64,000 bases of DNA from Nitrospirota bacterium (GTDB lineage Bacteria; Nitrospirota; JACRHJ01): contig CAVTDB010000026.1 of NCBI GenBank assembly GCA_963733375.1, positions 320,001 through 384,000 on the forward strand, written 5' to 3'. The translations under genes and the position numbers were made by a program. The notes below the pieces were generated by a model. It was not told the origin of the DNA. It saw only the letters and a program-made list of their open reading frames with translations, and did no database searches. Below, piece by piece: positions 4,823 through 54,071 of the stretch. Each line of letters opens with the position of its first letter. The first letter of the stretch is position 1.

Positions 4823-4880
4823 TTGACATTCCCGGACTCACCTTGTTATTATACGTAAGCTATTTTACGTAAACTATTTT
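4823..4880 (+). promoter_or_regulatory. sigma70 promoter of the PKS operon plus candidate operator
   Basis: TTGACA 4823-4828 and extended -10 TGtTATTAT (4844-4852), followed by tandem 14-bp repeats tacgtaagctattt / tacgtaaactattt (4852-4879). Confidence 0.65.
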
Positions 4881-4917
4881 AAGCCGTAATATGAGCCTTC
4901 TCGAAAGGGGGAGTGGC

Positions 4918-5478
4918 GTGGCAGGCTTTAATACCACGATGTCGAAAGAGGTGCTTCTTCTGGGACTCCTGAAGAGGAAGCCCATGTACGGCTATGAGAT
5001 AAAGCAGCTCGTGGACGAGGAACTCGTCCATGTCGCGCCCATCACCTCCGGCTCGCTGTATCATAACCTCAAAATCCTGGAAAAACGCGGCCTTGTGACC
5101 AAGAGCGTCCTCAAGGACACCGCGCACCCCGAAAAGCAGATTTACCATATCACGGACGAGGGCGTCCGCACCTTCGACAGCCTCCTTCAGGAGAACATTA
5201 CGAACTTCGAGCGTCCGCACCTGGCGCTTGACATATCCTTCTATTTCTTAAGGGAATCGGATGCGGGGCAGTTCCTTGATCAGCTCCGGGAACTCAGGGT
5301 ACGGCTTAAGGAGTATCACGCTGAAGCGGAGAGGTTTAAGGACGAACTGGCATCGAAGGGCGCGCCGGAAAATATGCTTTTCATCCCCGCGCATTACCTC
5401 GCGCACTCGGAGGCGGAGATAAAGTTTCTGGAAGGAATAATCGGCAGACTTGAGGCCGGAAGGGAAGGGGCTGCATGA
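4918..5478 (+). CDS. PadR-family transcriptional regulator
   Basis: LLGLLKRKPMYGYEIK, SGSLYHNLKILEKRGLV and IYHITDEG winged-helix motifs. Start is GTG 4918 or ATG 4939. Confidence 0.9.
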   Translation: MAGFNTTMSKEVLLLGLLKRKPMYGYEIKQLVDEELVHVAPITSGSLYHNLKILEKRGLVTKSVLKDTAHPEKQIYHITDEGVRTFDSLLQENITNFERPHLALDISFYFLRESDAGQFLDQLRELRVRLKEYHAEAERFKDELASKGAPENMLFIPAHYLAHSEAEIKFLEGIIGRLEAGREGAA

Positions 5479-6884
5479 AGTTCGAACTGGCCTGCAACTG
5501 GGACCCGGCGCTCCTTGAAGGTCTTGAAGGCGCCCCGAAGGTGGAGCTGTTCGGCGGCATTCCCGGAAGCCTTATCGCGGGGGGCAGGGCGTCGTTCGTC
5601 GCCCCGGAAGTGACGGAAGCCGACGCCGAAAAATACATCGCCGCCGCACGCGAAGCCGGGCATTCTTTCAATTTCCTCCTGAACGCCTCCTGCCTCGATA
5701 ACAGGGAGTACAGAAAGGACGAGTTCGAGAAGATACTCCGCCATGTAGAATGGGTGCAGGCGACCTCCGCGGACTGGGTGACGGTCACAATCCCCTACCT
5801 CCTGCAGATAATCAAAAAACATTATCCGTCATTGAAGCTCGTCGTTTCTTCCTGGGCGAGGGTGGAGAGCGTACGGAAGGCCCAGTACTGGGAGGAGATG
5901 GGCGCGGACGCTATCGTTTTGTCCGAGGAGATAAACCGCGATTTTAAAACCCTGGCGGCCATTCGCAGGGCGGTAAAATGCAAGCTTATCCTCATCGCCA
6001 ACCCCGGCTGCCTGTACGGATGCCCGCGCTCTTTCTACCACGCGAACGTCATGACACACGGCTCCCAGGGCAATCATTCCTCCGAAGGCTTCCTGGTTGA
6101 CCACTGCTATTTCTCCTGCACGAAGGACAAGATAAAAAACCCGACGGAGCTGATAAAGATACGCTGGATACGCCCCGAGGACGTGGAAGATTACGAGATG
6201 ATCGGCATTGACTGCCTCAAGATTATAGACCGGTACAAGACCACCGGGACGCTGCTTTCCTACCTGAAGGCATATACCGGCGGGCGGTTTGACGGGAACC
6301 TGGTGGAGCTTTTGAACCTTCCCCGCAAGAAGGCGTTCCTGCCCGCGAATGTAAAGTATCTCCTGAGGGATGAATATATAAATACGTCTAAATTAATGGA
6401 GTTCGCGGACATCACGGATTACCCGGTGACGGAAGGTCTGGTCCTGGATAACTCGAGGGTCCCGTCGAACTTCTTAAGCTTCTTCAAGACCAAGGACTGC
6501 GCGACGAGCGACTGCGAAGAGTGCGGGTACTGCGCCCTGATTGCCAAGAGGGCGCTTACGGTGGACAAGGCGCTGACGGGGGAGGCGGCGGGGAGGTACG
6601 AGGCGCTTTTGGAGTCGCTCGTTTCCGGTGAGATTTACCGGGAAGAGCCGGAGCCGGCGGCTGGCGAATGGGACGCCGAAGCGGTGACGGCGCACAAAAA
6701 ACTCCTTGATTTCGTGCCCGCGGTTTTCCGTTCGACCGCCGGGAAAAAAGTGTCCGCGGAGGTAAATGTCTTAAGCGGCGGGAAAGTAGGCCCGGACGAT
6801 ATTTACGCCGCATGGCGGAGGGCGACGCCCGCGCCGTTTAAGAAGATGGTAGAGGACAAGATCGCGGAGCTGAAGAATTGCTGA
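5475..6884 (+). CDS. peptidase U32-family Fe-S protein with C-terminal DUF2621/PCP_red-like domain
   Basis: FNFLLNASC, EINRDF..L..IR, ANPGCLYGCP...H, WIRPEDV..Y, KI.DR. Extra CxxxxCxxCxxC motif, then a helical domain from W at 6669. Confidence 0.8.
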   Translation: MKFELACNWDPALLEGLEGAPKVELFGGIPGSLIAGGRASFVAPEVTEADAEKYIAAAREAGHSFNFLLNASCLDNREYRKDEFEKILRHVEWVQATSADWVTVTIPYLLQIIKKHYPSLKLVVSSWARVESVRKAQYWEEMGADAIVLSEEINRDFKTLAAIRRAVKCKLILIANPGCLYGCPRSFYHANVMTHGSQGNHSSEGFLVDHCYFSCTKDKIKNPTELIKIRWIRPEDVEDYEMIGIDCLKIIDRYKTTGTLLSYLKAYTGGRFDGNLVELLNLPRKKAFLPANVKYLLRDEYINTSKLMEFADITDYPVTEGLVLDNSRVPSNFLSFFKTKDCATSDCEECGYCALIAKRALTVDKALTGEAAGRYEALLESLVSGEIYREEPEPAAGEWDAEAVTAHKKLLDFVPAVFRSTAGKKVSAEVNVLSGGKVGPDDIYAAWRRATPAPFKKMVEDKIAELKNC

Positions 6885-7396
6885 ACCACCACTTCGTGGA
6901 GATAAAGGCGCCCTTGGAGAGGATATTCGAAGAAATCATCCTCTGGGGTGAAAGCAAGTGGTGGCCTGATGAATCGCCCATGAAGTACAGCCGCGAAGAA
7001 AAGGGAGAGATAAAGGTCGGCACAAGATTCCATCAGAAAGTGCATAGGCCGTTCGCGCCGGAATGGGACGTCGAGGTAACCTCCATCGTCCCCGGACGCG
7101 AGGTCTCGAGGAAATTCATCAACGGGATGTTCAGGGGCACGGACAAGGTATATATAATCCCCAACCGCGGGTTCAACGAGGTCCATTTCCTGATGGACTA
7201 CGAAATAGTCGGGAATTTAAACCGCATCTTGTGGGCGCGCGTTTACCGGCGGATGCATGACGATAATATAAAACTGATTCTGCGCGCGCTGAAGGCGAGC
7301 CTTGAGGGCGAGGAAGTCTCGAAGCAAGAGGATTGGCTTTCTCCTGAAGAGCAGGACAGGAGACGTTTCTTCAAATCATTAATAAGGAGACATTAG
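6878..7396 (+). CDS. SRPBCC/START-fold protein (polyketide cyclase 2-like)
   Basis: VEIKAPLERIF..W..WWP start, VGTRF, C-terminal helix. Overlaps the U32 gene. Confidence 0.7.
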   Translation: MLNHHFVEIKAPLERIFEEIILWGESKWWPDESPMKYSREEKGEIKVGTRFHQKVHRPFAPEWDVEVTSIVPGREVSRKFINGMFRGTDKVYIIPNRGFNEVHFLMDYEIVGNLNRILWARVYRRMHDDNIKLILRALKASLEGEEVSKQEDWLSPEEQDRRRFFKSLIRRH

Positions 7397-7639
7397 ATGG
7401 ACTGGGAGACTGGGGCGCGGACGAAATTTGAAAAAATGATATCTATGATCCCATTTTTTCAGCGGAAGATGGCGGAGAGACTGGCGGGGAAGAAGGCGGA
7501 AGAATACGCGCAGGAACGCGGCGCGGCGCAAGTCGAAGAGCACCATATAGTAGCCGCGTTGATTGCCGAGACCCCGGCGCCGTTTCAGAGCAGTATGCGG
7601 GACACGGCCAGGACCGCGGGATTCGATATGCCGTCGTAA
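7397..7639 (+). CDS. stand-alone DUF2621/PCP_red-like small helical protein
   Basis: W...A...FEK...IP...R..A...AE..A.ERG...V...ETPAPF, homologous to the C-termini of the U32 and radical SAM proteins. Confidence 0.75.
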   Translation: MDWETGARTKFEKMISMIPFFQRKMAERLAGKKAEEYAQERGAAQVEEHHIVAALIAETPAPFQSSMRDTARTAGFDMPS

Positions 7640-7755
7640 CTCTCCTTTTTGCCACTCCTTAAGAAGGGGCAGAGGAGGATGGATTTGGTCTTAAATATCA
7701 ATAAATTTTTTCCTTAATCCCCCTCTTGGGTTAAGAGGGGGACAGAGGGGGCGTT
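7640..7755. repeat. intergenic C/G-run palindromes (REP-like)
   Basis: ccccctctt-gggtt-aagaggggg hairpin at 7719-7741 and a weaker one near 7655-7669. Confidence 0.45.
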
Positions 7756-7758
7756 ACT

Positions 7759-9625
7759 ATAAATTCCCGGATTTTATATATAGATTTATCTTCCGGGACT
7801 TCCGAAATAAAGGACATTCCGGAAAGCCTCCTGCGCAAATATATCGGCGGGCGGGGGATAAACAGCGCGCTGCTCTTTGAGAATACAAAAAAAGGCCTGG
7901 ACCCTTTAAGCCCGGAGAACCCGTTGATATTCGGCGCCGGCCTGCTGACCGGAATGCCGGGGCCGTCCTCCGCGAGACTGACCATCACCGGCAAGAGCCC
8001 GGAGAGCGGTCTTTTAGGCGACGCGAATATCGGAGGAGAGTTCGGATGCGCTTTAGCCTCCACGGGCGTCAGGCATCTGTTCATCACGGGGAAAGCAAAG
8101 CGGCCCGTTTACCTGCTTATTAAAAAAAATGGCGACGGGACATCCGCCGAAATAAAGGAAGCGTCGCATATCTGGGGCATGGACACAGTTCGAAGCGCAG
8201 GAGGTTATAAAAGAGGAGCATGGCGATAATGCGCATGTCGCCTGCATAGGCCCGGCCGGCGAGAACCTTGTCCGCTTCGCCTGCGTCATGCACGGCAGAA
8301 AGAACGCCGCGGGCCGCACCGGGATGGGCTGTCTGATGGGGGCCAAAAATTTAAAAGCGGTTGTGGCGGTAGACGCCGGGAAGGTCAAGCCGCACGACCC
8401 GGACGGTTTCGCGGCCCTTACCCATGAAATAAATTCGAAGCTCCGGACGGAATTCCTTACGCAGGACTTGGCGCGCTTCGGGACGGCGCATCTATATAAC
8501 GTAATAAATACGAACATCGAGATGGGCCGGACATATAACGGCCTCTCGACGAAAATGAAAGAGCCGGGTGACCTTGGCCCGGAGACGCTGGAAGCCCGGT
8601 ATTATTCGGGCAAACGCGGCTGCAGGCACTGCGCGGTAGCGTGCAGGCACTCGTATAAGATAACCGAAGGAAAACATGCCGGGCTGACAGGCGAAGGCCC
8701 GGAATACGGCATCATGGGACATATGGGGCCGGTGCTCGGGATAAACTCCGCCGAGGCGGTGCTCATGTTGAACGACAGGCTTAACCGCCTCGGTATAGAC
8801 GCAAGCTCCGCCGGCAACATAATAGCGTGGGCGATAGAATTATATAAAGAGGGTTTTATCGGAGACGCCGAGACCGGCGGGATGAAGCTGGACTGGAACG
8901 ACCCGGAGACGGCCGCCTTGCTTCTGGACGATATTGCATACAGAAGAGGGTTTGGAGACGTCCTGGCGGACGGCGCATCGGAGGCGTCGGCTAAGTTCGG
9001 AGATGACTCGGCCGGGCGCATGATCTGGGTGAAGGGCCTTCCGCAGTCGGACCCGGTAGACCTCCGGTTCATCAAGGCGTTCGCCCTTGGCGTCTCCACC
9101 GCGACCCGCGGCGCGGACCACCTTCGAAGCCGCTGCCCCTGGGAGGCGTTCGAATTCGATAAGGAATTTCTGGCGGGAATTTATGGCGGGCCGGTGGAGC
9201 CGGACCCGCTGAAATATGGCGGCAAGGGCCGGGTGGTCTGGTGGTGGGAAAGCTATCTCGCGCTCTTCGACGCGCTGGGGCTGTGCAAGCTCCTGGCCTT
9301 CCACACCTTGCCGGAGCCGGGCGTATTCGGCTTCGATGTATTCAGCGACTTAGTCAGGACGGGCAGCGGGATGGAGATAACGCCGGAGGAGATATTCGCG
9401 GCGGGACACGCTGTAACGGACGTGGAGCGCAGGTTCATCTGCCGCGAGGGCGTGGGACGAAAAGACGATTACCCGCCCATGAGGTATTTCGAGCCGCTTA
9501 TATGGCAGGACGGGCTGGACGACGAATCGCGGACGATGAAGCTCGACCGGGTATTGTACGACGGTATGCTGGACGAGTATTACGCCTGCCACGGCTGGGA
9601 CGTGAAAACAGGAAAACCTTATTAA
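7759..9625 (+). CDS. aldehyde:ferredoxin oxidoreductase family (W/Mo-pterin) protein (indel near 8188)
   Basis: RILYIDLS, YIGGRG, LDPLSPENPLIFGAG, KSP, CIGPAGENLVRFA, GRTGMG..MGAKNLKA, CxxCxxxC, EGPEY, RGADH, DALGLC, MLDEYY..GWD. Confidence 0.9.
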
Positions 9626-9708
9626 CCACGGATTATGCGGGTCGGGCTGATTTTAAAACCTGAAAATAGTTCTAACATTTAATCGGCTGAATCTGGTTTT
9701 AGGAAAAT

Positions 9709-10708
9709 ATGAAGATAGCGGTAATAGGCGCGGGGGCAATCGGGTGCGTGGCGGGGGCGCTTCTCCATGAGAAGGGCCACGCGGTTACCCTTGTTAGCCG
9801 CGACCCGCGCCAGGTCCGGGCGATTAACCGCGAAGGCCTGTCGCTTGACGGCATTTCGGCAAGGAATAATTTTGTCATATATGCCGCAAGGTCGCTGGAG
9901 TTCATTCCCGACCTGGCGCTCCTCGCGGTAAAGACGCAGGACCTGGAGACGGCATGCAACCAGATTGCGGGCATGGGCGATTTCCCGGCGCTGACGATGC
10001 AGAACGGCCTGATGGCCGACGAGATAGCCGGAAGCATCCTTGGCAGGGAGCGGATCATTTCGTCGGTCGTCATGTTCGGGGCGACATATAAAGAGCCGGG
10101 GCATGTAACGTATAACTTTCCCGGCGGCCTCGTTATAGGCAAGGCGTTCGGCCCGGACGGCGGCGGCATCGTAGAGAAGGCGAAGAATATGATGTCCGGG
10201 TCTTTAGAGGTGCGCGTAGCCGAAAACATCCAGGCCATGCACCGCGCGAAGCTGATACTGAACTTAAATAACGCGCTTGCCTGCGTACTGGGGAAGAGCC
10301 TGCAGGATACGTTTTCGGATAAACGGTATGTGCATATTGGGGCTGTCGATGATGCGCGAAGCATGGGAGGTTTTCGAATCCAGCGGGATGGAGATGGCCG
10401 ACCTCCCGAACCTGCCTCTGGAGAAATTGAAATCTCTGCTATACGCCCCGGAGGAAGTAGGGGCGCAGATTTACGGCAATATCATGCGGGGCCTTTCCCA
10501 CCTCCCCCTTCTCGGCTCCGTCCTGCAGAGCGTCATGCGGGGCCGCGCGTCGGAGGTGGATTATTTAAACGGCGAAGTCGCGAGGGCGGCTGGGAAGATG
10601 GGGCGGGAGGCAAAGTTGAATTCAAAGGCGGCGGAGCTGGTCAAGGAAATCGAAAATATAAATCAATTTCTATCAATCGAAGAGATGCTAGCGAGGTTCG
10701 GCTTATGA
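9709..10708 (+). CDS. ketopantoate reductase (PanE/ApbA) family oxidoreductase (indel near 10330)
   Basis: IAVIGAGAIG, LAVK, MQNG, KL..N..N. The shifted frame has GS.LQS..RGR.SEVDYLNGEV. Confidence 0.85.
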
Positions 10709-10968
10709 TGGAGTTTCCGGGTTTTCTGCTGACGGTGGACAGTCTTCAAAAAGAATGTTTCAAGGGATATAAAGTGGGTGATTCTTTTGAGGTAAAGGAC
10801 TTCGTGACGCCGCCCGACGGCTTCTGCGCCGGGGCGTATCATTCGCTCTTCCCGGTCATTTATGCCTGGACATTCGGCGCGGAATTCCCTTTCAAGGACG
10901 GGGAAGGGTGCGTCAGGACGACATGCCCGGACGGCGGGAAACTGACGTTCAAGGTGAGGAAATTATAA
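10705..10968 (+). CDS. TIGR04076-like small Cys-containing protein 1
   Basis: C..GYKVGD.F, P.GFC..AYH.LFP, FGA.FP, TCPDG...F. Confidence 0.75.
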   Translation: MMEFPGFLLTVDSLQKECFKGYKVGDSFEVKDFVTPPDGFCAGAYHSLFPVIYAWTFGAEFPFKDGEGCVRTTCPDGGKLTFKVRKL

Positions 10969-11237
10969 TGGCTAATCCCAAAAAAATGGTCATATCGGTC
11001 GAGGAAGTTTCCGGGCCGTGTTTTTATAAATACGAGCAGGGACAGGAGGTGGAGGTCCTGGGACTTCGGACGCCGGAAGGTTTCTGCGGCGCGGCGTACC
11101 ATACGCTGTTCCCCGTGCTCTTCGCCCTGAACTTCGGCGCGAAGTACCCCTTCATGGAAGACCCGAATTCCATCAACACCGTGACCTGCCCGGACGGCGG
11201 GTACGTGCGGTTCAAGGTCAGGAGGGTGGAGGGTTGA
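10968..11237 (+). CDS. TIGR04076-like small Cys-containing protein 2 (paralog)
   Basis: Same C...GFC..AYH.LFP...TCPDG pattern. TAATG overlap with copy 1. Confidence 0.75.
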   Translation: MANPKKMVISVEEVSGPCFYKYEQGQEVEVLGLRTPEGFCGAAYHTLFPVLFALNFGAKYPFMEDPNSINTVTCPDGGYVRFKVRRVEG

Positions 11238-12491
11238 ATCTCCGCAGGGTCGTCATAACAGGCCTGGGCGTCATCGCGCCGGGAGGCATCGGTAAAGACG
11301 CCTTCTGGGATTCCATGATAAACGCGCGGACGCAGACCGGGCTTATTACCGCATTCGATACCTCCGGGTTCCTTTCGAAGGTCGCGGCGGAAGTGAAGGG
11401 GTTCAACCCTGCCGCCTTCGGCATCTCATATGAAGAGGCCTCGGGGATGGACCGCTATCTGCAGTTCGCCCTGGCCGGGGCGAAACTGGCCGTGGAGGAC
11501 GCCGGGCTGGAATTCGGCGGCCTGGACGGAGAAAAGTGCGGAGTGGCGCTGGCTAACGCCATATGCGGGACGAAATGGATGGAGGAGGAGTTCCTGCGCG
11601 TTACCGGCAACGGACATGGGCCGATCGACCCGGCCCTCGCGTCGCCGTATCTGTACGATGCGTCCATATTCAATTCTCCCGCCAACTTCATAGCCGCGCG
11701 CTATGGCTTGAAAGGCGGGGCGTGCGTCATATCCACCGGCTGCACGGCCGGGACGGACTCGGTCGCCTATGCGTATGAAAATATCCAACTCGGTTTATGC
11801 GACATGATGATAACCGGCGCGTCCGAGGCCCCGATTACGCCGATAGCCCTTGCCGCATTCGACGTGATAAAGGCGCTCTCGAAGCATAACGACGAGCCCG
11901 GGGCGGCGTCCCGTCCTTTCGACAGGACGAGGAACGGGTTTGTCCTGGCCGAGGGCGCGGGGATACTGGTACTGGAGGAATACGGGCACGCGGTGAAGCG
12001 CGGAGCGAAGATATACGCGGAGATAGCGGGTTTCGGCTCCACGTCCAACGCATTTCACATGACGGATCTGCCGAAGGACGGCGAAGCCCTGGCCCGGTCA
12101 ATAAAAATGGCTATGGACGAGGCGCGGGTCAATGCCGACGACGTGGATTACATAAGCTCTCATGGAAGCTCCACGGAACAGAACGACGTCTTCGAGACGA
12201 ACGCGATAAAGACGGCGCTTGGGGAACATGCCTGGCGGGTGCCTGTCAGTTCCATTAAGATCCATGATAGGACATCCGCTTTCCGCGGCGAACTCCATCG
12301 AGCTTGCGCTTTCGGCGATGGTGATGGAGCGGGGCGTAATCCCGCCGACAGTGAATTACCGTGAGCCGGACCCTGCATGCGACTTCGATTATGTGCCAAA
12401 CGTGGCGCGGGATAAAAAGGTGGACGTGGTGATAAAAACGAGCAGCGGGTTCTCCGGGATCCATTCGTCAATGGTCTTGAGGCGGGCATGA
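11234..12491 (+). CDS. type II PKS ketosynthase alpha (indel near 12258)
   Basis: RRVVITGLGV.APGG.G, STGCTAG active Cys, SRPFDRTRNGFVL.EG, NAFHMT, SHGSST.QND, VPVSSIKSMIGH, CD.DYVP..AR. This is the aromatic KS-alpha pattern rather than FabF. Confidence 0.92.
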
Positions 12492-13694
12492 GACGCGCGG
12501 TCATAACAGGCATAGGGGTGGTAAGTCCGGCGGGCAACTCGCCTGAAGAATTATTCGACAGGCTCTCCTCGGGCGAGGGCTTCACGGGCGAGATCAGCCG
12601 CTTCGACGCTTCGCGCTACCCGTCGCGTCATGCGGGGCTGGTACATGATCCCGGCGGGGAAGAGATATTTTCCAAGAGGCTCCTTAAGAAGCTGGACAGG
12701 TTCTCGCACATGGCGCTCTCCGCCTCCGACGGGGCGATTCAAAGACAGCGGGATAAACCTGGACGCCGAGGACAAAAACCGGGTCGGGATAGCCTTCGGC
12801 AACGCCCTGGGCGGCTGGTCGTTCGCGGAGGAGGAACTGCGGGACCTCTGGACTCACGGCCTTCGTGAAGTCAGCCCGTACCAGGCGACCGCATGGTTCC
12901 CGGCGGCGCCGCAGGGCCAGATATCCATTTTCTACGGTATAAAGGGTTTTTCCAAGACCATAATCTCCGACATCGCCAGTTCGCATCTCGCTATCGCTTA
13001 CGCCGCGCGTGCCATTCAAACGGGCAAGGCGGACGTGATGTTAGCTGGCGGCACCGAAGCGCCGGTATCGCCTTACGCGCTTCTGTGCTGCAACACCTCC
13101 GGGGAGCTTAGCCTGACCGGGAGCTACAGGCCCTTCAGCAAGGGCCGCGACGGGTATATAATCGGCGAAGGGGCGGCCGTACTCGTCATCGAAGAGATGG
13201 AAAAGGCGGTCGCGAGGGGGGCCAGGATATACGCGGAGGTAAAGGGTTTTGGGCACACAAGCGACGGGATGCACCCGACAATGCCTGATCCGTCAGGCGA
13301 CGGCATGGCCCGCGCCATCGGACTAGCGATGCGGCAGGCCGCTGTCTCTCCATCCGAAATCGGGATGGCTATCCCATCCGCGAATGCGGGGAAAGAAGCC
13401 GATTTATCCGAGGGAAGGGCCCTTTTAAAAATCTTCGGAAACAGGGCTTCTGAACTGCCGATTTATTCGCCGAAGCCGCAGACGGGGAATTTACTGGGGG
13501 CGTCCGGCGCGCTCGATACGGCGTTTGCCTGCATGGCGCTTGGCAGAGGTGAGACGCCGACCCTCAAGGTAATTGATCCGGAATTTGATTTCTTTGACGG
13601 CGGCGGAAAAAAGAAGATCGATAAGCGGGATATCATTATAAATTCCATCGGGCGTGGCGGGGTAAACGCCTGCCTTTTAATCGGAAAGCCTTAA
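12488..13694 (+). CDS. type II PKS chain length factor (KS-beta) (indel near 12738)
   Basis: KS paralog without the catalytic Cys or the two His. GGW.FAE.EL..LW..G...VSPYQ..AWF.AA.QGQISI and KPQTGNL.G..GALD motifs. Confidence 0.9.
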
Positions 13695-13708
13695 GGTAAG
13701 GGGTAAAG

Positions 13709-13946
13709 ATGACGGTAGAAGAGAGGGTCGAAAAAGTTTTCGAGGAAATAGGCATAGACAAAGCTGAACTTCGTCCGGAAGTCGACTTTGAAAAGCGATC
13801 TCGGGATTGACTCGACGGAGATGGTGGAACTGATGGTCGCGCTGGAAAAAGAATTCTCGGCCAAAATCCCCAACGGCGTGATAAACGGCGGGAGCACGGT
13901 CCGCGAGATAATCGACTATTTTCTAACCGTGGCGGCCAGGTCTTGA
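13709..13946 (+). CDS. acyl carrier protein (not in ORF track; +1 indel near 13779)
   Basis: MTVEERVEKVFEEIGID... then in the shifted frame STLKSDLGIDSTEMVELMVALEKEF..KIP......TVREII, carrying the phosphopantetheine Ser motif. Confidence 0.88.
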
Positions 13947-14713
13947 AAATAATCGACCTGAGCACCCCGATAGACGACCTGGCGCCGGAGCCTTTTCCGG
14001 TACAGGTGACCCGGATTGGCCATGAGGAGGGTGCGGAGAGGGTAGGGGAGAAATTTCCCGGAGAGAAGAAAATCGGCGGCGATACTTTCCCCGGCGGGAT
14101 GTTCCTGTCCCATGAAACCGTCCAGGCGTCGGTGCACTGCGGGACGCATGTGGACGCGCCGTGGCATTTCGGGCCGGAGTCGGAAGGACGGCCGGCGAAG
14201 AAGATAGACGAGGTCCCACTTGAATGGTGCTATGGGGACGGTTTTGTAATTGACATGAGGGCCCTGCCGCCGGGCGGAGAGATAAAGCCGGAGGACGTGA
14301 GGCGGGGCTTGAGAGAGATCAATTACCAGCCGAAACCGGGCGACATCGCGCTTATCAGGACCGGGGCGGACAGCTATTTCGGCACAAAGGAATATTTTCT
14401 GAAATTCGCGGGCCTGAATGTCGATGCGGCGGAATATTTATTCGGTCTTGGAATCAGGACCATCGGGACCGACGCGCCGGGCCTGGACAGGCCTTTTATG
14501 GATATGGTCGCGGATTATCAAACGACGGCGGACAACTCGAAACTCTGGCCGGTACACATGCTGGGAAGAAAAAAAGAATACTGTCATATAGAGAGGCTCG
14601 CAAACCTTGGCGCGCTCCCGAGGGCGCACGGATTCAAGTTCGCCTGTTTCCCGGTAAAGATAAAAAACGCGGGCGCGGCATGGGCACGCGCCGTGGCTAT
14701 ATTCGAGGACTAA
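13943..14713 (+). CDS. polyketide second/third-ring cyclase (kynurenine formamidase-like cyclase family)
   Basis: IIDLS, HCGTHVDAPWHF, IDEVPLEW..G.G, IGTDA..LDRP, EYCHIERLANL. DpsY/OxyN/ZhuJ-type by motif and position. Confidence 0.85.
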   Translation: MKIIDLSTPIDDLAPEPFPVQVTRIGHEEGAERVGEKFPGEKKIGGDTFPGGMFLSHETVQASVHCGTHVDAPWHFGPESEGRPAKKIDEVPLEWCYGDGFVIDMRALPPGGEIKPEDVRRGLREINYQPKPGDIALIRTGADSYFGTKEYFLKFAGLNVDAAEYLFGLGIRTIGTDAPGLDRPFMDMVADYQTTADNSKLWPVHMLGRKKEYCHIERLANLGALPRAHGFKFACFPVKIKNAGAAWARAVAIFED

Positions 14714-14723
14714 AGGAAAAATA

Positions 14724-15152
14724 ATGGCACACACCAAAAATTCCATATTCATAAACGCGCCTTATGGGAGCGTGTTCGACATTACGAACGACATCGAGCG
14801 CTGGCCCGAGCTTTTCGACGAGTATTCGGACGCGAAAATCCTTTCGCGCGAAGGAAACAAAATAACCTTCCAACTTACCAACAAGGAAGGGAAGTCCTGG
14901 CGCTCCAGCCGCATCCTGGACAAGCCCGGGCATAAATGCTCCGCGAAACGCGAGGAGCCGATGTTCCCGTTCAAATACATGGACCTCCTCTGGACATACG
15001 TCGAGAAAGACGGCGGGGTGGAGATGACCTGGGAGCAGGACTTCTCCATGGACGAAAAAGCGCCGGTGGACGATAAGACGGCCGAGGCCCGCATAAACGA
15101 GCACTCGAAGAAGAACATGCAGAGGATAAAAGAAATAATCGAGGGAATATGA
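14724..15152 (+). CDS. monodomain aromatase/cyclase (TcmN/WhiE-ORFVI-like)
   Basis: HT.NSI.I.AP...FD.TNDIERWPELF.EY, W.S.R, PF.YM...W.Y, M.W.QDF.M...AP.DD, IN..S..M..IK. Confidence 0.9.
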   Translation: MAHTKNSIFINAPYGSVFDITNDIERWPELFDEYSDAKILSREGNKITFQLTNKEGKSWRSSRILDKPGHKCSAKREEPMFPFKYMDLLWTYVEKDGGVEMTWEQDFSMDEKAPVDDKTAEARINEHSKKNMQRIKEIIEGI

Positions 15153-15875
15153 AGATACTTGGCATCTGCGGGACGCACAAGAGGGGGAAGCAGAAATCCG
15201 CCAGCGATTATTTTCTGCGCAAGGCCCTTGAGGCCGCCGAAGAAAAAGGGGCCGAGTCGGAAGTTATCCGCCTGATAAATTACAACGTGAAGCCATGCCT
15301 CGCGTGCAACCGCTGCCTCTGCGGCCTTACCTGCCCTTTGCTCGAAGACAAGGACGACGACGGGAAGCTCATTTTCGATAAAATGTCGGAGTCGGACGCG
15401 TTTATTTTTTCGTCCCCGGTCTATGCCTATCAACAGCCCGCGATAGTCATGAACCTTTTGCACAGGACCCGCCCCTTGCACGAGCAGGAGCGTTCGGAGA
15501 TATGGGGGACGACTATCACCGCATACCCGAAAAACCCTTTCAAGGGCGCCCCGGTGGGCAACCTCGCGGTAGGCGCGGCGCTCGGGATGGAGGGTGCGCT
15601 CTATTACCTGTTCCATTACCTGAAGGCGATGACGGCGACTTCTGTCGCGTGCGCGGGGATCGCTCTGATGGACGCGGAGATGAGGAACCTCTGCATGGTG
15701 GGAAAGCGTTTCGCGATGGAGCATCCCGGTTTTAAAACACTGCTGGACAAGCCGATGCCGTCTTACGAGGAGAATAAACCCGCCAGCAATGATGGCGCGT
15801 GCGGTGGGCGAGCAGGTGTTCGACGTGTGGAATTCGGAGCTTTTTCAAACGATAAAAGAAGTGCTGAGATATTGA
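15149..15875 (+). CDS. iron-sulfur flavoprotein / flavodoxin-fold FMN reductase (indel near 15783)
   Basis: MKILGICG, CLACNRC..(x5)C, D..I.SSPVY. The corrected frame ends at TGA 15875. Confidence 0.8.
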
Positions 15876-16853
15876 TGATATTCGACTCTCATTTCCATCT
15901 GTTGCCGGATGAGGTAATCAAGCACGCCTCGTTCTACAACGACTCCTGGGGCGGTATGGACGGCCATCTTCGTGCAATGGACGAGGCCGGTGTCTCGCGC
16001 GCGCTTATCTCTTATCCGACTACCGATTTTCATCTGAAGGCCGCCCTTGCGGAAACGGATGCGGCGCGGGTATATAACGGGGCGGTGAAGGAAATAGCCG
16101 AGCGGTCGGCGGGACGGATTTCGTGGCTTGGGTCAGTGCCCTTGACAGGGCCTGACGAGATGGTCTCTCTGGGCGAAGAGGCATTGGCGCAAGGCGCGCG
16201 CGGGTTTACCATGCCGACGAACAGCGGCGGGATATATCCGGACGACCCGCGGTTCCTGCCTTTTTTCGAGAAGGCCGAAGGGTGGGGAGCGCCGATATTT
16301 TTTCATCCCACCACGCTTACTCCGTTCGGGTCCGAGAGAGCTGCGCCACCCGCTGATAACGCCCGTGTTCCAGTACGCGTTCGATACCACGCTCTGCCTC
16401 GCCAGGGTTATCGACTGCGGCCTGCTGAAAAAGTTCCCCCGGTTGAAGCTTGTGTTCGCGAGCTTCGCGGGCGTGATGCCGTTTCTTGCGGGCAGATACG
16501 GCAGGACGTACAAGATGCTCCTTGGCCGGGGGATAGTGAAGGACATGGGCGAGGAGCCGGGTGAGACGTTGAAGAAAATTTACGTGGACACTTCCGGCAC
16601 GGCGGACGTAAAGATGCTGGAGCTGGCGATAGATATATTCGGCGAGGACAGGGTGCTGTGGGGAAGCGATTTCCCGGCGAACCGTGAGATAAAGGCGTCG
16701 ATAGACGCCGTTAACGCTCTAAGTTTGAAGCCGCCTTCCAAACAAAAAATTTTGCACGAGAATTTAGATAAGCCTTGCTCGGTTTTTAACCCCGGTTTTC
16801 TTTGGTTACTTTCTTTTACCCAAAAGAAAGTAACGAAAGGTTTTGAATGTTAA
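15875..16853 (+). CDS. amidohydrolase-2 family protein, probable aromatic-acid decarboxylase/hydrolase (indel near 16337)
   Basis: DSHFH metal motif, MDEAGV..A, FFHP, KFP.LK, YVDTS, DRVLWGSDFP. Confidence 0.8.
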
Positions 16854-18052
16854 TAATAAAAAGGTTTTGATCTTCGGCGCGGGGATCGCGGGTCTTTCGA
16901 CGGCCTATTACCTGCGGAAGGAAGGCTGCCAGCCGGTCGTCTACGAGAAGAGGCCGGATGCGGGCGGACGGTTCGCGACGCTGGAATATGAAGGGGTATA
17001 TATAAATAAAGGCGCGATGATGTTCGCGCCGGCGCTGAACCCGCACTTTACGGAACTGATCAGGGAACTGGGCGTGTCGCACGAGCTTATCAGGCTTAAA
17101 AAATTTGCCCTCCAGATAGGCGATGAAATCACCGGCCTGGATTCCTGGTCCATGTTCAGGAGCGGCTTTTTTACTTTTTCCGAGTACATGCAGTGGAGGC
17201 GGCTGAAGAAGTTTATAAAGGGCCTGGACTTCCGATCTTGAGAGCTGGGACCCGAAGCTTCAGGAGCTTCATTCGATTTCGCTGGAAGAGTTCTGCGTCC
17301 GCGAGATGGGCTATTCGCAAAAGATGCTGGACTACATCGTCCAGCCGTTCTCCAGCTTCGGGTATATCGACCCGCCGCACATTGCCGCGGACCATGGGCT
17401 GTTCCTGTTCGCATACGGCGATTCGCCCGTGCGCGTCCCGCACAAGGGGATGGCGGAGGTGGCGGCCGAGCTTGTCCGGAGGATGCCGGGCGTCGTAAAG
17501 ACGGGGTATAAGGTAGAGAGGGTAAAGAAAAATGCATCAGGGACTTTTGATGTAAACCTTAAGGGGCCGGAGGGAGCGCCTTTGAAGGAGACGGCGGACT
17601 GCGTGGTGTTCGCCACCGGCCAGGAGAGCCTCGGCAAGGTGATGCCGGAGATAACGGTGGACGTGAAATCCACTAAGACGCGCGGAGTGATATTCGAGTC
17701 CCGCACCCCCCGGTACGGCAAATACGACGTCCTGCTTTTTTCCAAATATAAAAACCGCCACGGCATACACGGCGGAGAGATGAAACACCTGCCTGACGGC
17801 AGGACCATCGCCGGGATGTTCATGTACAGGCCGGACGCGGACATCGAGGCCGTGTTCGGGAAATATAAAGAACTGCCGAAGGTCGGCTGGTCTCCGGCGA
17901 TAACGCTCATCCCGCCGGGGAGCAGGACGAGAGGCATCGAGACAGAGGTTCCGGGCGCATTCCTGGCCGGAGATTTCTACCGGCTTCCGTGCATCGAGTC
18001 ATGCGTTTACACCGCGAAAAAAACGGTGCAGGCGATAAAGGGGCTTGCCTGA
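16843..18052 (+). CDS. FAD-dependent oxidoreductase (amine oxidase/HemY-like fold; indels near 17235-17290)
   Basis: GAGIAGL.TAYYL, YEK...AGGR, KGMAEV..EL, C-terminal FLAGD......IESCV.TA. Confidence 0.78.
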
Positions 18053-18054
18053 CA

Positions 18055-19416
18055 ATGTCATATGACGCGGTAATAATCGGCGCCGGTCTTGGCGGGCTTT
18101 CCGCCGGAGCGTATCTTTCGCGCGCCGGGAAAAAAGTGCTGGTGCTGGAGAAGATGTCCGAGCCGGGCGGGCGATGCCGGACGGTGGAGCTTATGGGGCA
18201 CCGCTTCGACATCGGCGCGGACTATTTCGGCAAAAAATTACTCGGCGTATTCTCGGAGCTTGGGAAGAGAAAAGAGCTGGAGCCGGTATGGTTCAAGGTG
18301 CGGGCGAATTGCGCGGGTTCCTCCATGACCATCCCGCCGGGCCTGCATACGCCTAAGGACCTTCGCGGCATGGGGATGGGGACGAAGGATATCGGCCGCT
18401 TCGGCCTTAATATGGGCGGGCAGATATTATTCAACCGCTTCAGGAAAATCTCCAATTACAAAGAACTGATAAACAGGATTACCGACAACCCGAGCCTCCG
18501 GGAGATACTGAATGTCGGCGCGTTCTTCTCCGGGAACGAACCTGAAAACATGCCGTCTCACTGGTTTAACCTGGTCTTCGGCAGGACGTATGGATACGAC
18601 AGGCCGTTCATACCCAGGGCCGGTGCGGGGAGGCTGCCGGAGCTTCTGGCCGACGTCATCCGCGAGAGCGGCGGCGGCATAGTCTATAACGCGCAGCCGA
18701 AAAAGATAATGATAAGCGACGGCAAGGCGAAGGGCGTCCTGCTGGACGGCAGGGAGATAGAGGCGGAGAACGTCATAAGCGGGACGGGCATTTTGCAGAC
18801 CGTGCACTCACTCGCGGGCAAGGAATATTTCCCGCAGGGGTTCCTGAACACGCTGGGCTACTACAAAGAGGGTTTTTGCATGGCGAGCGTGTTCACGGTG
18901 TTCAAGAGGAGCGCGAAAATTACTCCGGGCGTGCACCTCTACGCGATGTTCCCGAAAAGTGTCGGCGGGATGTTCAGGACCCTGAAAGACGGCTCCTTTC
19001 CGCAAGATAACATGTATGTCATCTCCGTCCCCGGCGCGGCGCACGACAGCGGCGGGGAGCATCTTGCCGGCACCATAAAGTTCCTCGTGCCCAAGGGCAT
19101 TATCGCAAGAGAGGCTATCGAGGCCGAGGCCGGGAAAGTAATGGCTAAAATGGATTCGCTGATTCCGGGCTTCCGGGAGAGCGTAATAGAGAGCAGGCTA
19201 TACACGCCGATGGACTATGCGGTTAATTTCGGTTTTGTCAGTTCCGTCTCGCCTGTCGCCGAGAGCGTGCATTACGAGAAGATGGATACAAATACGCCGG
19301 TCAAGGGATTATACTGCGTAGGCTCCACGGTGCTTCCGGCAGGCGGCTGTGCCGCGTCGTCGGTGCTGTCCGGCAGGGCCGCCGCGAGACTTATAATAAA
19401 GAATGGCGGAAGTTAA
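18055..19416 (+). CDS. phytoene desaturase-family FAD/NAD(P) oxidoreductase
   Basis: YDAVIIGAGLGGL.A..L...GKKVLVLEK...PGG, FD.GA, L.....GG.I, TP.D, TPVKGLYCVG....GG......SGR.AA. Confidence 0.85.
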   Translation: MSYDAVIIGAGLGGLSAGAYLSRAGKKVLVLEKMSEPGGRCRTVELMGHRFDIGADYFGKKLLGVFSELGKRKELEPVWFKVRANCAGSSMTIPPGLHTPKDLRGMGMGTKDIGRFGLNMGGQILFNRFRKISNYKELINRITDNPSLREILNVGAFFSGNEPENMPSHWFNLVFGRTYGYDRPFIPRAGAGRLPELLADVIRESGGGIVYNAQPKKIMISDGKAKGVLLDGREIEAENVISGTGILQTVHSLAGKEYFPQGFLNTLGYYKEGFCMASVFTVFKRSAKITPGVHLYAMFPKSVGGMFRTLKDGSFPQDNMYVISVPGAAHDSGGEHLAGTIKFLVPKGIIAREAIEAEAGKVMAKMDSLIPGFRESVIESRLYTPMDYAVNFGFVSSVSPVAESVHYEKMDTNTPVKGLYCVGSTVLPAGGCAASSVLSGRAAARLIIKNGGS

Positions 19417-19489: not shown

Positions 19490-20080
19490 ATGAAAAAAAT
19501 GCTTTTAATAATGGCCGTCGTCGCACTTTTGATACCTGTTAATGCCTTAGCCGGGTCGAGTGGCCCGGGAGTCCTCGACAAAGAGAACGTGATGACGGAC
19601 AAGAGCCTCGCGAAGTACAAGAGCATCGGGATCAAGATATTCTCCACGGACAACATAGAGTACAATAACGTGGACGACGAGGAGAAGCAGAGAGATGAAG
19701 GGCTACCTGAAGGGACTGGCAGGAGATGCTCGCAAGGACCTGTGAAGAACGAGCTTAACGGGGACAGGGTCACCGCCTTTATAATCGATCCGGACGGCAA
19801 GAACGCCGGCAAGGCGGACATGATAATCGAAGGGCGAGTTATCGCAGATAAACATGGGAAGCGCATTCAGCAGGATGGTTCTGGGGGATGGGCGCCGGCG
19901 GGCGGGGGTCACCGTGAAGGGCAAGCTGATAGACGCCAGGACCGGCAAGGAACTCGCGACAGTTCGAGCACGAAAGCACGTCCGGACTCCAGGGCGGCGA
20001 CAAATGGTCGATGGTGGCAAACAGGGTTAAGGCCACGGGCGACAAGATAGACTGAGTTCGTAGAGAAACTGAGCAGATAA
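19490..20080 (+). CDS. exported protein, DUF4410-like (several indels)
   Basis: AGGAGG RBS and signal peptide MKKMLLIMAVVALLIPVNALA. Stitched frames give IIEG....INMGS..SR...GMGAG...VTVKGKLIDA.TGK.LA. Confidence 0.55.
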
Positions 20081-20116: not shown

Positions 20117-21679
20117 TTGCGAACTTTTGTATCCGTGAACAGGGAGACCGAGCCTTTCACCGCGGCCCCGCTCGGCCTTGCGCTCGTCGCTCAAGCGCTC
20201 CGCCTTGCGGGGCACGACGTGCATGCGCTCGACCTCCTTTTCGCGGAAGACCCGGAAGCTGAGCTGAAGCAGGCAATCAGTTCTCTCTCTCCGGATTTCA
20301 TAGGCGTCTCGATTCGGAACATCGAGTCTTCCAGCCGTTTTCTCCTGCCGGATTACAAGGAAGTCATCGGGCTGATAAAGCGGGAGACGGAGGCCCCTGT
20401 CGCTTTGGGGGGGCCGGGATATTCCATCATGCCGAAGGCCGCCCTTCAATATCTGGGAGCGGATTACGGGATAGCCGGAGAGGGAGAAGTGGCCATGCCG
20501 ATGCTTGCGGACGCGCTTTCCGGGAAGACGCCTTTCTCGAAGGTACCCGGCCTTTGCCGGTTCGAAGGCGGCTCCTATATCCAGAACCCGGCAAGTCCGC
20601 TCAGCCTTGATACGCTCGGCCTGCCCGCGTGGGAGTTCTTCCCGGCCGAAAATTACGACATGATAGGGGTCCAGTCTAAACGCGGCTGTTCCTTCTCGTG
20701 CGTCTATTGCACCTATCCGGGGCTGGAAGGAAGAGAAATGCGCCTGCGGCCCCCGGAGGAAGTGGCGCGCGAGATGAGCGGCGCGATAGACGCCGGACTG
20801 ACGGCCCCTTTTTATTTCGTGGACAATATATTCAATAATCCGCCCGGCCACGCCGCCGCCGTATGCGATGAAATAATTAAACGCGGGATTAAAGCTTCCT
20901 GGGGATGCCTTGCAAGCCCCGTCGGACTGGACGGCAGGCTCCTTGATAAGATGAAGCGGGCGGGGTGCGAGAGCGTGGAGGTGGGCGCGGACTCCCTGTC
21001 CGACAGGATGCTCTCAAAGCTCGGTAAGAAGTTCGGGAAGGACGAGGCCGTGAACGCCGTCCGGGCCGCGAAGGAGGCGGGGCTGATGAGCCTCGTGTTC
21101 CTGCTCCTGGGCGGGCCGGGCGAGGACGGGGATTCGCTTAAAGAGACCTTCGACGCCCTTGAGGAGCTGCAGCCGGATAAAGTGTTCGCCGTCGCCGGAG
21201 TGCGGATATATCCGGGCACGCCCCTTGCCCGCATAGCCGAAAATGAGAAATTGATTTCGCCCGAAGACCCGCTTATGGAGCCAAAGTTTTACGTCTCGGA
21301 CAAGCTGGGCGACGGCCTTTATTCCATCGCGGGGGAATATTTCAAGACTCATCCGGACTGGGTCTGCTATCCCGCCAATGGTATTTTACAGGGAATGCAT
21401 CCGAAAGGTATCAGTTCGGGAAGGGGTCTTCATTCACAACCGAAGGATGCCCTGTGGGACGATTTCGCATTGGAGGTGTTCGAGAAAGTCCTGCTGGAGG
21501 TCCCGGCGCTCCTTCGGCCTATTGCGCGCAAGGCCATCCGGAAAAAGGCGCAAGGGGCGGTAAAATCCGGGTCGGTAAAAGCCTCCGACGTAAAGGACGC
21601 TTTTCTCTCCGAGACGCCCCGGCCTTTTCAGGGGCCGATGAGGGAAGCCTTAAGGAAACTGGGGCTGGCCGATGGTTAA
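20117..21679 (+). CDS. B12-binding radical SAM protein with C-terminal DUF2621/PCP_red-like domain
   Basis: PLGL..A..L...GHDV..LD and PDFIGVSIRNI (cobalamin domain), KRGCSFSCVYC, FVDNIFN, RIYPGTPL. Helical tail from W at 21455. Confidence 0.9.
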   Translation: MRTFVSVNRETEPFTAAPLGLALVAQALRLAGHDVHALDLLFAEDPEAELKQAISSLSPDFIGVSIRNIESSSRFLLPDYKEVIGLIKRETEAPVALGGPGYSIMPKAALQYLGADYGIAGEGEVAMPMLADALSGKTPFSKVPGLCRFEGGSYIQNPASPLSLDTLGLPAWEFFPAENYDMIGVQSKRGCSFSCVYCTYPGLEGREMRLRPPEEVAREMSGAIDAGLTAPFYFVDNIFNNPPGHAAAVCDEIIKRGIKASWGCLASPVGLDGRLLDKMKRAGCESVEVGADSLSDRMLSKLGKKFGKDEAVNAVRAAKEAGLMSLVFLLLGGPGEDGDSLKETFDALEELQPDKVFAVAGVRIYPGTPLARIAENEKLISPEDPLMEPKFYVSDKLGDGLYSIAGEYFKTHPDWVCYPANGILQGMHPKGISSGRGLHSQPKDALWDDFALEVFEKVLLEVPALLRPIARKAIRKKAQGAVKSGSVKASDVKDAFLSETPRPFQGPMREALRKLGLADG

Positions 21680-25522: not shown

Positions 25523-25980
25523 TGATACGAAAAGCGCGAATCCAGGACGTAAAAATCATAAAGGACCTGGTCAACCGCTACGCCGAAAAGGGAGAGATGC
25601 TCCCCAGGGCGCTTGGCGAGCTGTACGACTCCGTCCGCGATTTCAGCGTCTATGAAAAAGACGGAAAGGTCATAGGCGTAGCCGCGCTCCATATCGGGTG
25701 GGAGGGCTTAGGCGAACTGCGGTCGGTGGCGGTCGCGCCGGAGCATATCGGGGAAGGCATAGGAAAAAAACTGGTCCAGGCCTGCATGGAAGAGGCGGCA
25801 AAGATGGGGGTCAGGGAAGTCTTCGTCCTCACGTACGTCCAGGAATTTTTCGATAAAATCGGGTTTCGTACGGCCAACAGAAACGACCTCCCGCAGAAGG
25901 TATGGACCGAGTGCCGGAACAAGTGCGTAAAATATCCCGACGAGTGCAACGAGACAGCGATGACCCTGAAACTCGATTGA
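25522..25980 (+). CDS. GNAT acetyltransferase (short ArgA-like N-acetylglutamate synthase)
   Basis: MIRKA, MLPR, ELRSVAV..G.GIG, VFVLTY..FF...GF, LPQKVW.EC..C. Confidence 0.8.
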   Translation: MIRKARIQDVKIIKDLVNRYAEKGEMLPRALGELYDSVRDFSVYEKDGKVIGVAALHIGWEGLGELRSVAVAPEHIGEGIGKKLVQACMEEAAKMGVREVFVLTYVQEFFDKIGFRTANRNDLPQKVWTECRNKCVKYPDECNETAMTLKLD

Positions 25981-44010: not shown

Positions 44011-44021
44011 CCGATAGGGAA

Positions 44022-54064: not shown

Positions 54065-54071
54065 ATAGCGC

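Follow-up and report, generated by a model that had tools for sequence, protein, structure and literature searches.

The open reading frame (ORF) on the plus strand at positions 5475-6884 of a 64,000-nucleotide stretch of Nitrospirota DNA (hereafter 'the window'; contig CAVTDB010000026.1 of assembly GCA_963733375.1) encodes a cysteine-rich protein of the U32 superfamily with a triosephosphate isomerase (TIM) barrel, and stands at the head of an aromatic type II polyketide synthase (PKS) cluster in an anaerobe. This U32-like protein is best explained as belonging to a large sister clade of the U32 'oxidases' that is so far uncharacterised. On the strength of its gene context, we consider it possible, at somewhat less than an even chance, that the protein is an O2-independent, probably prephenate-dependent, ring hydroxylase or oxidase. 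Among the explanations considered, this reading is the best supported because relatives of the protein are accompanied by dedicated chorismate mutases and ring-tailoring genes, because the pairing with a protein of SRPBCC fold recurs, and because the family appears in two unrelated type II PKS clusters that are free of oxygenases. The U32 superfamily is already known; the clade, its cysteine architecture and the proposed class of substrate are new.

Fold, family placement and conserved cysteines

The frame is intact from ATG to TAA, encodes 469 amino acids (aa), and is labelled 'U32 family peptidase' in the Protein Atlas. Its assignment to U32, made in the original prediction from the sequence letters, holds up. 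The match to Pfam Peptidase_U32 (PF01136) reaches 45 bits against a cut-off of 22.4, and the best sequence match in the PDB is the U32 domain of MK0906 from Methanopyrus kandleri (5D88, E 1.7e-11). An AlphaFold2 model built from a 17-sequence alignment (mean predicted local distance difference test score, pLDDT, 86.6; predicted template modelling score, pTM, 0.84) returns the same structure as its top Foldseek match (E 1.8e-10, TM-target 0.73), as befits a TIM barrel, and the runners-up are generic TIM barrels at E about 5e-5. Comparison with E. coli TrhP, UbiU and RlhA using hhalign gives a homology probability of 97.3%. The MK0906 domain is the only solved U32 domain found; unlike the protein studied here, it has no cysteine aligned to C179 or C183, and 5D88 spans the barrel only (247 residues). 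The four-helix tail that closes the U32-like protein is related to the 80-aa protein encoded downstream.

All of the cysteine motifs listed in the original prediction (CLYGC..H, HCYFSC and a C-terminal CATSDCEECGYC) are present in the ORF. The segment GCLYGC supplies C179 and C183 and is followed by H189 and H195, HCYFSC supplies C211 and C215, and CATSDCEECGYC carries C342, C347, C350 and C353. A further near-invariant residue, C73, was absent from that list. Conservation was counted in an alignment of 91 family members, where C179, C183 and C215 are kept in all 91 and C73 in 89. The second set, CX4CX2CX2C, is specific to the family and is nearly as constant (C342, C350 and C353 in 90 of 91 each, C347 in 88), as are both histidines (90 of 91 each). 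Eight cysteines kept in 88 to 91 of the 91 members are thus not chance cysteines. The pattern makes two metal sites plausible, and the four strongly conserved cysteines of the barrel would be able to hold a [4Fe-4S] cluster. We propose that the protein probably binds two iron-sulfur (Fe-S) clusters, one through C73/C179/C183/C215 at the barrel and the other through C342/C347/C350/C353. The position of C179 is that of the first canonical U32 cysteine, immediately past the last aligned strand.

Two phylogenetic trees place the protein outside the characterised U32 groups. In a tree of 95 rows, the 91 family proteins split from E. coli UbiU, UbiV, TrhP and RlhA. A second tree of 52 rows, made with a mixture model and with the canonical U32 genes of other Nitrospirota genomes added, recovers the family as a clade of 36 rows (Shimodaira-Hasegawa-like approximate likelihood ratio test, SH-aLRT, 99), distinct from the UbiV, UbiU, TrhP and RlhA groups; a fifth group, of proteins 312-347 aa long, likewise stands outside it. 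Other Nitrospirota genomes contribute members to both the TrhP and the RlhA group. Because both trees came from 'quick' searches and have long branches, their internal order is insecure; the split of the family is seen in both. The original prediction had named clustering with TrhP or RlhA as the outcome that would speak against it, and the trees return the opposite.

The family is large. A word-indexed search found 268 relatives among 8000 candidates scored, in two length classes. Proteins of the longer class (about 470-490 aa) end in a DUF2621/PCP_red-like tail, which those of the shorter class (about 390 aa) lack. Named sources of these relatives are metagenome-assembled genomes (MAGs) of Nitrospirota and Thermodesulfobacteriota. 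A profile search with hmmsearch over 1.84 billion representatives returned 3059 at E<=1e-3, 1763 at E<=1e-10 and 850 at E<=1e-30, and the proteins of the last group all come from MAGs of anaerobes. The genome carrying the window is itself a 2.39-Mb MAG, 81% complete. A scan of species genomes gave at least 608 candidate stretches, of which 571 of those listed were confirmed. The best 80 of the at least 608 stretches resolve into 79 loci, and every count of loci out of 79 given below refers to these. The loci come from Nitrospirota, Thermodesulfobacteriota, Omnitrophota, Planctomycetota, Bacillota, Chloroflexota, Spirochaetota and other phyla.

The type II PKS cluster and related biosynthetic loci

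The cluster that the U32-like gene heads (Table 1) is a genuine aromatic type II PKS, in keeping with the polyketide setting originally proposed. It has a ketosynthase (KS) pair, an acyl carrier protein (ACP) and a dedicated TcmN-type aromatase/cyclase. The KS alpha active site reads STGCTAG, and the alignment shows KS beta, the chain-length factor (CLF), without the corresponding Cys and His residues. The KS alpha orthologue in locus L003 matches the actinorhodin KS (1TQY_A) at 401 bits and 6SMO_B at 374 bits, compared with 338 bits for the best FabF. Scanning of ORFs between 4891 and 27102 revealed no Pfam oxygenase family in those covered, so the part of the original prediction that spoke of a missing oxygenase stands.

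Immediately downstream of the U32-like gene, and overlapping its stop, lies the gene for a 172-aa protein. This protein has no family match in Pfam or NCBIfam, and a profile search of the PDB gave nothing below E 1.6. Its structure model (pLDDT 85.6) matches PYL, Bet v 1 and TTHA0849 in Foldseek at E about 1e-7, pointing to a START/SRPBCC helix-grip fold. An hhalign comparison with the TcmN-type cyclase of the cluster aligned only 24 columns at the N-terminus, with a probability of 4.9%.

The window copies of seven cluster genes carry frameshifts, and the U32-like ORF is free of any break. Each break in the cluster amounts to one extra base when compared with genome G002 (97% identical), against which the aligned parts of the window show 97 indels spread throughout its length. 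The same gene order, with all genes intact, is present in L003 and in genomes G001, G002, G006 and G008. The extra base at 8187/8188 is missing from an independent metagenome contig. We read the frameshifts as assembly errors because the indels occur window-wide, the sister genomes are intact and the independent contig is without the base at 8187/8188; pseudogenisation was considered and rejected on the same grounds. Single-base insertions that break genes occur, for example, at 8187, 10328, 12263, 12739, 13783, 16338, 22472, 27279, 34289, 49222 and 61152.

Linkage of the U32-like gene with the PKS is conserved. Long collinear DNA matches to 5400-17400 are found in 9 of 11 genomes of the same taxonomic family, and in the other two, G003 and G005, the match is confined to about 630 bases within the KS region (64-66% identity). 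Within the ORF's own clade of eight or nine members, the KS pair is present in all four loci whose sequence continues for 6 kb or more downstream (the window, L003, L006 and L010), and L009 has the same first genes up to its contig end.

A second type II PKS cluster with a U32-like gene (32% identity) is found in a different phylum, in a Lachnospiraceae MAG (L068). It encodes TetR, SRPBCC, KS alpha, KS beta, a phosphopantetheinyl transferase, an AlkD-HemN fusion, an alpha/beta-hydrolase, Amidohydro_2, cupin, CMD, a PF04199 cyclase and a radical S-adenosylmethionine (SAM) enzyme. The two clusters have in common SRPBCC, KS alpha, KS beta, a HemN-like radical SAM enzyme, Amidohydro_2 and the PF04199 cyclase.

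Other relatives keep company of a similar kind, and decarboxylases, prenyltransferases and methyltransferases are the types of ring-tailoring neighbour encountered in the family. L029 combines methyltransferases, UbiD, a KS pair, FMN_red, the U32-like gene and a radical SAM/SPASM gene, and L078 combines a UbiA prenyltransferase, a UbiE-like methyltransferase, a radical SAM gene and genes of fatty acid synthase (FAS) type with the U32-like gene. In Pseudobacteroides (L066:22-20575), three tandem U32-like genes are accompanied by two HemN-like and three SPASM radical SAM genes, two AlkD-like proteins, a methyltransferase and an ABBA aromatic prenyltransferase. Homologues of the HemN-like enzyme of the window adjoin U32-like genes in L066, L068 and L078. 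A second paralogue in genome G001 (L124:7394-11160, 407 aa) follows a UbiE-like methyltransferase gene and precedes first a Polyketide_cyc SRPBCC gene and then a FabF-like KS; the SRPBCC pairing thus recurs. In the genome of the window this second paralogue is a 225-aa fragment beside a methyltransferase (G000:C1:23848-24039, L002). One fusion protein (P0180, 628 aa) joins the U32-like domain to a class I methyltransferase.

A stand-alone chorismate mutase accompanies the U32-like gene in 13 of the 79 loci. In a Thermodesulfobacteriota clade of 25 members, a conserved unit comprises the U32-like gene, a B12-binding radical SAM gene, a 131-aa ORF and a stand-alone 94-aa chorismate mutase. Three of five genomes with such a locus have a second chorismate mutase, of PheA type, elsewhere.

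Separate observations on these loci are recorded here. The L068 cluster (L068:1-15603) adjoins a relaxase and a NikA-like gene, and its fusion protein unites, over 874 aa, an AlkD-like DNA-alkylation-repair domain with a HemN-like radical SAM domain; the cluster may be mobile, and may make a DNA-alkylating product against which it confers self-resistance. A gene resembling Fe/Mn superoxide dismutase lies divergently beside the unit of U32-like, B12-binding radical SAM and chorismate mutase genes in 11 sources (L043:5514-6128 and ten further loci), which is odd for strict anaerobes. An apparent similarity of U32-like to radical SAM ORFs in a first clustering was discarded, since it arose artificially from single linkage and from ORF calls that ran too long.

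Proposed mechanism and competing explanations

Two papers give prephenate as the oxygen donor of UbiU/UbiV-dependent hydroxylation and as a requirement for TrhP and RlhA function, and propose that U32 proteins in general are prephenate-dependent hydroxylases (PMC10990095, PMC11574389). Fe-S U32 proteins are also proposed as hydroxylases in PMC10990095 and PMC6747719. The known functions of U32 oxidases, as given in PMC11574389, concern ubiquinone and two RNA bases only. A full-text literature search returned nothing relevant that links U32 proteins with polyketides.

In this cluster, the U32-like protein would most likely oxidise the aromatic polyketide of the adjacent PKS without O2, by ring hydroxylation or by an oxygen insertion of the anthrone-to-quinone type. 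The translationally coupled START/SRPBCC-fold protein would present the hydrophobic intermediate, as UbiT does for UbiU/UbiV; we infer contact between the two proteins because their genes overlap. Prephenate would serve as the oxygen donor, on the analogy of UbiU/UbiV, TrhP and RlhA, and electrons would exit via the second cluster (C342/C347/C350/C353). More broadly, the whole branch with two cysteine sets, comprising at least 850 clusters at 50% identity, might form a general O2-free hydroxylase toolkit of strict anaerobes. Such enzymes would act on aromatic polyketides, quinone-like lipids and other lipophilic rings, with prephenate as donor, sometimes supplied by a dedicated chorismate mutase, and alongside radical SAM methylases; in type II PKS clusters they would carry out the missing anthrone-to-quinone or ring-hydroxylation step. 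We regard this generalisation as doubtful.

UbiU/UbiV (YhbU/YhbV of E. coli) are among the closest known parallels. They share the U32 superfamily, four conserved cysteines near the end of the barrel, a plausibly aromatic and lipophilic substrate, and a small hydrophobic-ligand-binding partner next door (UbiT there, the SRPBCC-fold protein here), and relatives of the U32-like protein adjoin UbiD-, UbiA- and UbiE-like genes and chorismate mutase. However, the two systems are only 14% identical, belong to separate clades and differ in cysteine spacing. UbiU/UbiV form a heterodimer pair, whereas a single subunit is found here, extended by the second four-cysteine set and the helical tail. The partner has a START fold here and an SCP2 fold there, and the genes lie in a type II PKS context here and among ubi genes there.

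In aerobic type II PKS pathways, cofactor-free anthrone oxygenases of the ActVA-ORF6/TcmH type convert an anthrone or phenol to a quinone using O2; their fold is unrelated to U32 and their reaction is O2-dependent. This is the same step as is proposed for the U32-like protein, and no such family was detected in the window cluster. The dendrubin (den) cluster of a strict anaerobe yields anthraquinone products with no oxidase or oxygenase gene (PMC7693217). The anaerobe type II PKS systems for dendrubin and clostrubin resemble the window cluster in having KS, CLF, ACP, a TcmN-type and a second cyclase, and no oxygenase gene (PMC7693217). The window cluster differs by the addition of AFOR (aldehyde:ferredoxin oxidoreductase), radical SAM, CrtI-like and LpxL-like genes. 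The main text of the dendrubin paper makes no mention of a U32 or peptidase gene (PMC7693217).

A number of findings weigh against the hydroxylase/oxidase reading. Sequence identity to E. coli UbiU, UbiV, TrhP and RlhA is just 14-17%, and a long branch (length 1.92) divides the clade from all four known groups. The Pfam match is limited to residues 85-179, corresponding to profile positions 2-95 of 233 (relatives within the wider family clade, L068 for one, match as far as positions 2-231), and the hhalign alignment spans residues 45-176 only, ending just before the cysteine region. PMC6747719 gives the U32 motif as CX6CX15CX3/4C and, for UbiV, a variant CXnCX12CX3C with its first cysteine far upstream. 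The spacing here, CX3CX27CX3C (C179-x3-C183-x27-C211-x3-C215) plus the upstream C73, departs from the canonical motif. C211, the 'HC' of HCYFSC and third in this series, is retained in just 51 of 91 members, and in the chorismate-mutase-linked clade a cysteine further upstream replaces it. KS genes lie near the U32-like gene in just 8 of the 79 loci. The window cluster has no chorismate mutase; the genome's sole CM_2 match is on the same contig, about 100 kb upstream. Further candidates for an O2-independent oxidant are encoded in the cluster itself (an AFOR-type enzyme, radical SAM enzymes and CrtI-like flavoenzymes). Even for UbiU/UbiV, direct in vitro hydroxylase activity is described as lacking in PMC10990095 and PMC11574389. 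The original interpretation is thus supported in part.

The substrate may also differ from a free polyketide. The back half of the cluster resembles the lipid-type 'ladderane/PUHC' cassettes, which counts further against the proposal in that the substrate could be lipid-linked; on the same ground, the true substrate may be a lipid-anchored aromatic polyketide. The 'ladderane/PUHC' FAS-like clusters of Kuenenia and Desulfotalea (the TIGR04072 cassette) share with the window a B12-binding radical SAM enzyme nearest to TIGR04072, CrtI-like enzymes, one further radical SAM enzyme and a KS/CLF-like pair (PMC2649909; bioRxiv 10.64898/2026.05.19.726425). The enzyme of the window scores 333.4 bits against the TIGR04072 cut-off of 360, close to it but below. 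Unlike those clusters, the window has a KS alpha nearer to the act KS than to FabF and a TcmN-type aromatase. The 'ladderane/PUHC' papers make no mention of a U32 gene (PMC2649909; bioRxiv 10.64898/2026.05.19.726425).

The commonest neighbour of the U32-like gene also speaks against a hydroxylase, and raises the alternative that the protein may assist radical SAM tailoring enzymes, especially the B12-dependent ones, in a redox or accessory role, acting as an Fe-S electron conduit or as a second catalytic module on a shared substrate. B12-binding radical SAM genes occur in 48 of the 79 loci by tblastn and in 53 of 80 sources when ORFs are clustered (at a distance of no more than 2.5 kb in 42 of the 53), and those neighbours are nearest to the curated BchE model (230-250 bits against a cut-off of 481). 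Three to six such genes are interleaved with two or three U32-like genes in L069, L059, L079 and similar Omnitrophota and Planctomycetota loci, and one fusion protein (P0268, 964 aa) unites U32-like, DUF2621-like, B12-binding and radical SAM domains. This neighbour pattern and the fusion fit a role tied to radical SAM chemistry equally well. The CX4CX2CX2C set resembles that of an electron-transfer cluster, and the window cluster contains one B12-binding, one SPASM and one HemN-like radical SAM enzyme. However, no B12-binding radical SAM gene is present in the DNA fetched for the six-member clade of L029, L073, L052, L036, L034 and L038, for L068, or for the second paralogue in L124. In the window, this gene is 13 kb distant, whereas the SRPBCC-fold gene overlaps the U32-like gene, and both the neighbours and the fusion would equally fit two consecutive tailoring steps on one substrate. 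We consider a partner role unlikely, while giving it more weight than the remaining alternatives. The arrays in L069, L059, L079 and similar loci hold, in addition, a PMT_2 glycosyltransferase-like membrane protein and a GDSL lipase.

The chorismate mutases that favour a prephenate-dependent hydroxylase would also suit an enzyme that consumes prephenate or chorismate as its main substrate, for instance by decarboxylation or rearrangement, to give a non-acetate starter or building block to a PKS or lipid pathway. The extra chorismate mutase copies noted above are compatible with this, as is the location of some of these loci next to shikimate-pathway genes, and the mechanism that PMC10990095 puts forward for U32 enzymes includes the decarboxylation of prephenate. 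On the other hand, the association is restricted to a single Thermodesulfobacteriota clade, and chorismate mutase is missing from L068 and the other polyketide-linked loci as it is from the window cluster. The overlap with a gene for a hydrophobic-ligand-binding fold suggests a lipophilic substrate. We judge this explanation quite improbable.

Two further explanations fare much worse. A housekeeping RNA hydroxylase of the TrhP (YegQ) or RlhA (YdcP) kind, prephenate-dependent and merely adjacent to the cluster, would share the U32 barrel, and the TrhP model (NF011996) is the sole curated NCBIfam family with any match to the ORF. That match scores 24.3 bits where 534 are required, no part of the ORF matches the second half of the U32 profile, the protein falls in another clade in both trees, and the gene context has nothing related to RNA. 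Moreover, the U32-like gene overlaps PadR at its start and the SRPBCC-fold gene at its stop, and it is syntenic with the PKS in every long-enough locus of its own clade; this view is close to refuted. Equally remote is a collagenase-type peptidase, which the Pfam family name and source annotations such as 'collagenase-like PrtC family protease' would imply. The eight near-invariant cysteines, the biosynthetic context in every subclade and the lack of peptide- or protease-related neighbour genes all oppose it, and U32 proteins with cysteine motifs are now treated as Fe-S oxidases in the literature (PMC6747719, PMC11574389).

The hydroxylase/oxidase reading provides a concrete, testable candidate for the addition of oxygen to aromatic polyketides in strict anaerobes, in type II PKS clusters of two phyla. 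If true, it would extend prephenate-dependent hydroxylation to secondary metabolism and help genome mining to pick out anaerobic tailoring steps. The wider family (the 3059 representatives at E<=1e-3) is without a studied member, and the dedicated chorismate mutases, together with the methyltransferase and B12-binding radical SAM fusions, offer several independent entries to its chemistry.

Flanking features and minor observations

The features around the ORF are collected in Table 1. The description of the U32-like gene as the first enzyme gene of an operon is consistent with the flanking DNA, where a PadR regulator gene overlaps the ORF start by 4 bases and is preceded by the best promoter-like match of the region. 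PadR is syntenic in L003, L004, L005 and L006. Further along the cluster, the ORFs at 17306-18052 and 19490-20050 have no family match, and POR-like pieces and a GNAT gene lie between the radical SAM/SPASM and HemN-like genes.

Table 1. Annotated features of the U32-like gene and its surroundings, in window coordinates
Feature	Positions	Strand	Remarks
Promoter-like site TTGACA-18 nt-TATTAT with TG, ahead of PadR	4823-4852	+	consensus match only, 11/12
PadR-family regulator	4891-5478	+	PF03551, E 2.7e-17
U32-like Fe-S candidate enzyme, 469 aa	5475-6884	+	TIM barrel, Cys-rich middle, C-terminal four-helix tail (about residues 398-461)
172-aa protein, START/SRPBCC helix-grip fold	6878-7396	+	fold from model; start overlaps U32-like stop
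80-aa helical protein, paralogous to U32-like tail	7397-7639	+	weakly PCP_red/DUF2621-like, 25 bits against cut-off 32.5
Dispersed repeat with hairpin CCCCCTCTT..AAGAGGGGG	7711-7766		gap ahead of AFOR gene
Aldehyde:ferredoxin oxidoreductase-family (AFOR) gene	7759-9625	+	extra base at 8187; intact 647 aa in L003
ApbA/PanE-type NAD(P)H reductase	9709-10708	+	extra base at 10328
Two tandem TIGR04076-family small proteins	10702-11237	+	
KS alpha with active-site Cys	11255-12491	+	extra base at 12263
KS beta/CLF	12377-13694	+	without catalytic Cys and His residues; extra base at 12739
ACP	13709-13946	+	extra base at 13783
PF04199 'cyclase' family protein	13943-14713	+	E 2.6e-31
TcmN-type aromatase/cyclase (SRPBCC)	14724-15152	+	2REZ TcmN, E 8.4e-45 (profile against PDB)
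FMN_red flavodoxin-like and Amidohydro_2 (decarboxylase-type) proteins	15149-16769	+	run together by indels at 15786-15789 and 16338
Two CrtI/amine-oxidase-like flavoenzymes	16843-19416	+	first broken at 17234
B12-binding radical SAM enzyme	20117-21679	+	nearest TIGR04072 'lipid biosynthesis B12-binding/radical SAM protein'
LpxL/PIM-type acyltransferase	21672-22514	+	
Radical SAM/SPASM enzyme, split in window	22644-24036	+	single 487-aa ORF in L010
HemN-like (class C) radical SAM enzyme, split in window	25902-27102	+	

The cluster runs directly into an outer-membrane/lipid A block at 27267-48807, which holds bamA, skp, lpxD, lpxA, lpxI, a DegT-type aminotransferase gene, lpxB, msbA, DUF374, kdtA, lpxL and heptosyltransferase genes. 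Because the cluster has an LpxL/PIM-type acyltransferase of its own, its product may be lipid-linked. Two islands of low G+C content, at 44001-46000 (0.38) and 54001-58000 (0.40-0.41), stand out from about 0.56 elsewhere. The former contains an N6_N4 DNA methylase and a 757-aa ORF without family, and the latter contains ORFs on the minus strand; both could stem from mobile elements or restriction-modification systems.

Copies of short dispersed repeats of about 50-60 bases are found at 7711-7766 and 16783-16847. They recur at many sites, with 85-96% identity, in the genome of the window and in its relatives, and one metagenome contig skips 7646-7739, the region of the first copy.

In the metatranscriptome run X20, whose RNA library may hold DNA, short contigs match 7405-7646 (6 differing letters) and 9346-9600 (3 differing letters), and a 34-base fragment lies inside the U32-like ORF; of the three X20 records, two fall in the 95-99% identity band and one in the 90-95% band. 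A second metatranscriptome run (X23) gave no match to the region. Two DNA runs of peat metagenomes (X1 and X2) cover 28 and 29, respectively, of 30 bins of the window between 4800 and 9600, at 90-99% identity, which indicates that close relatives of the organism occur in peat.

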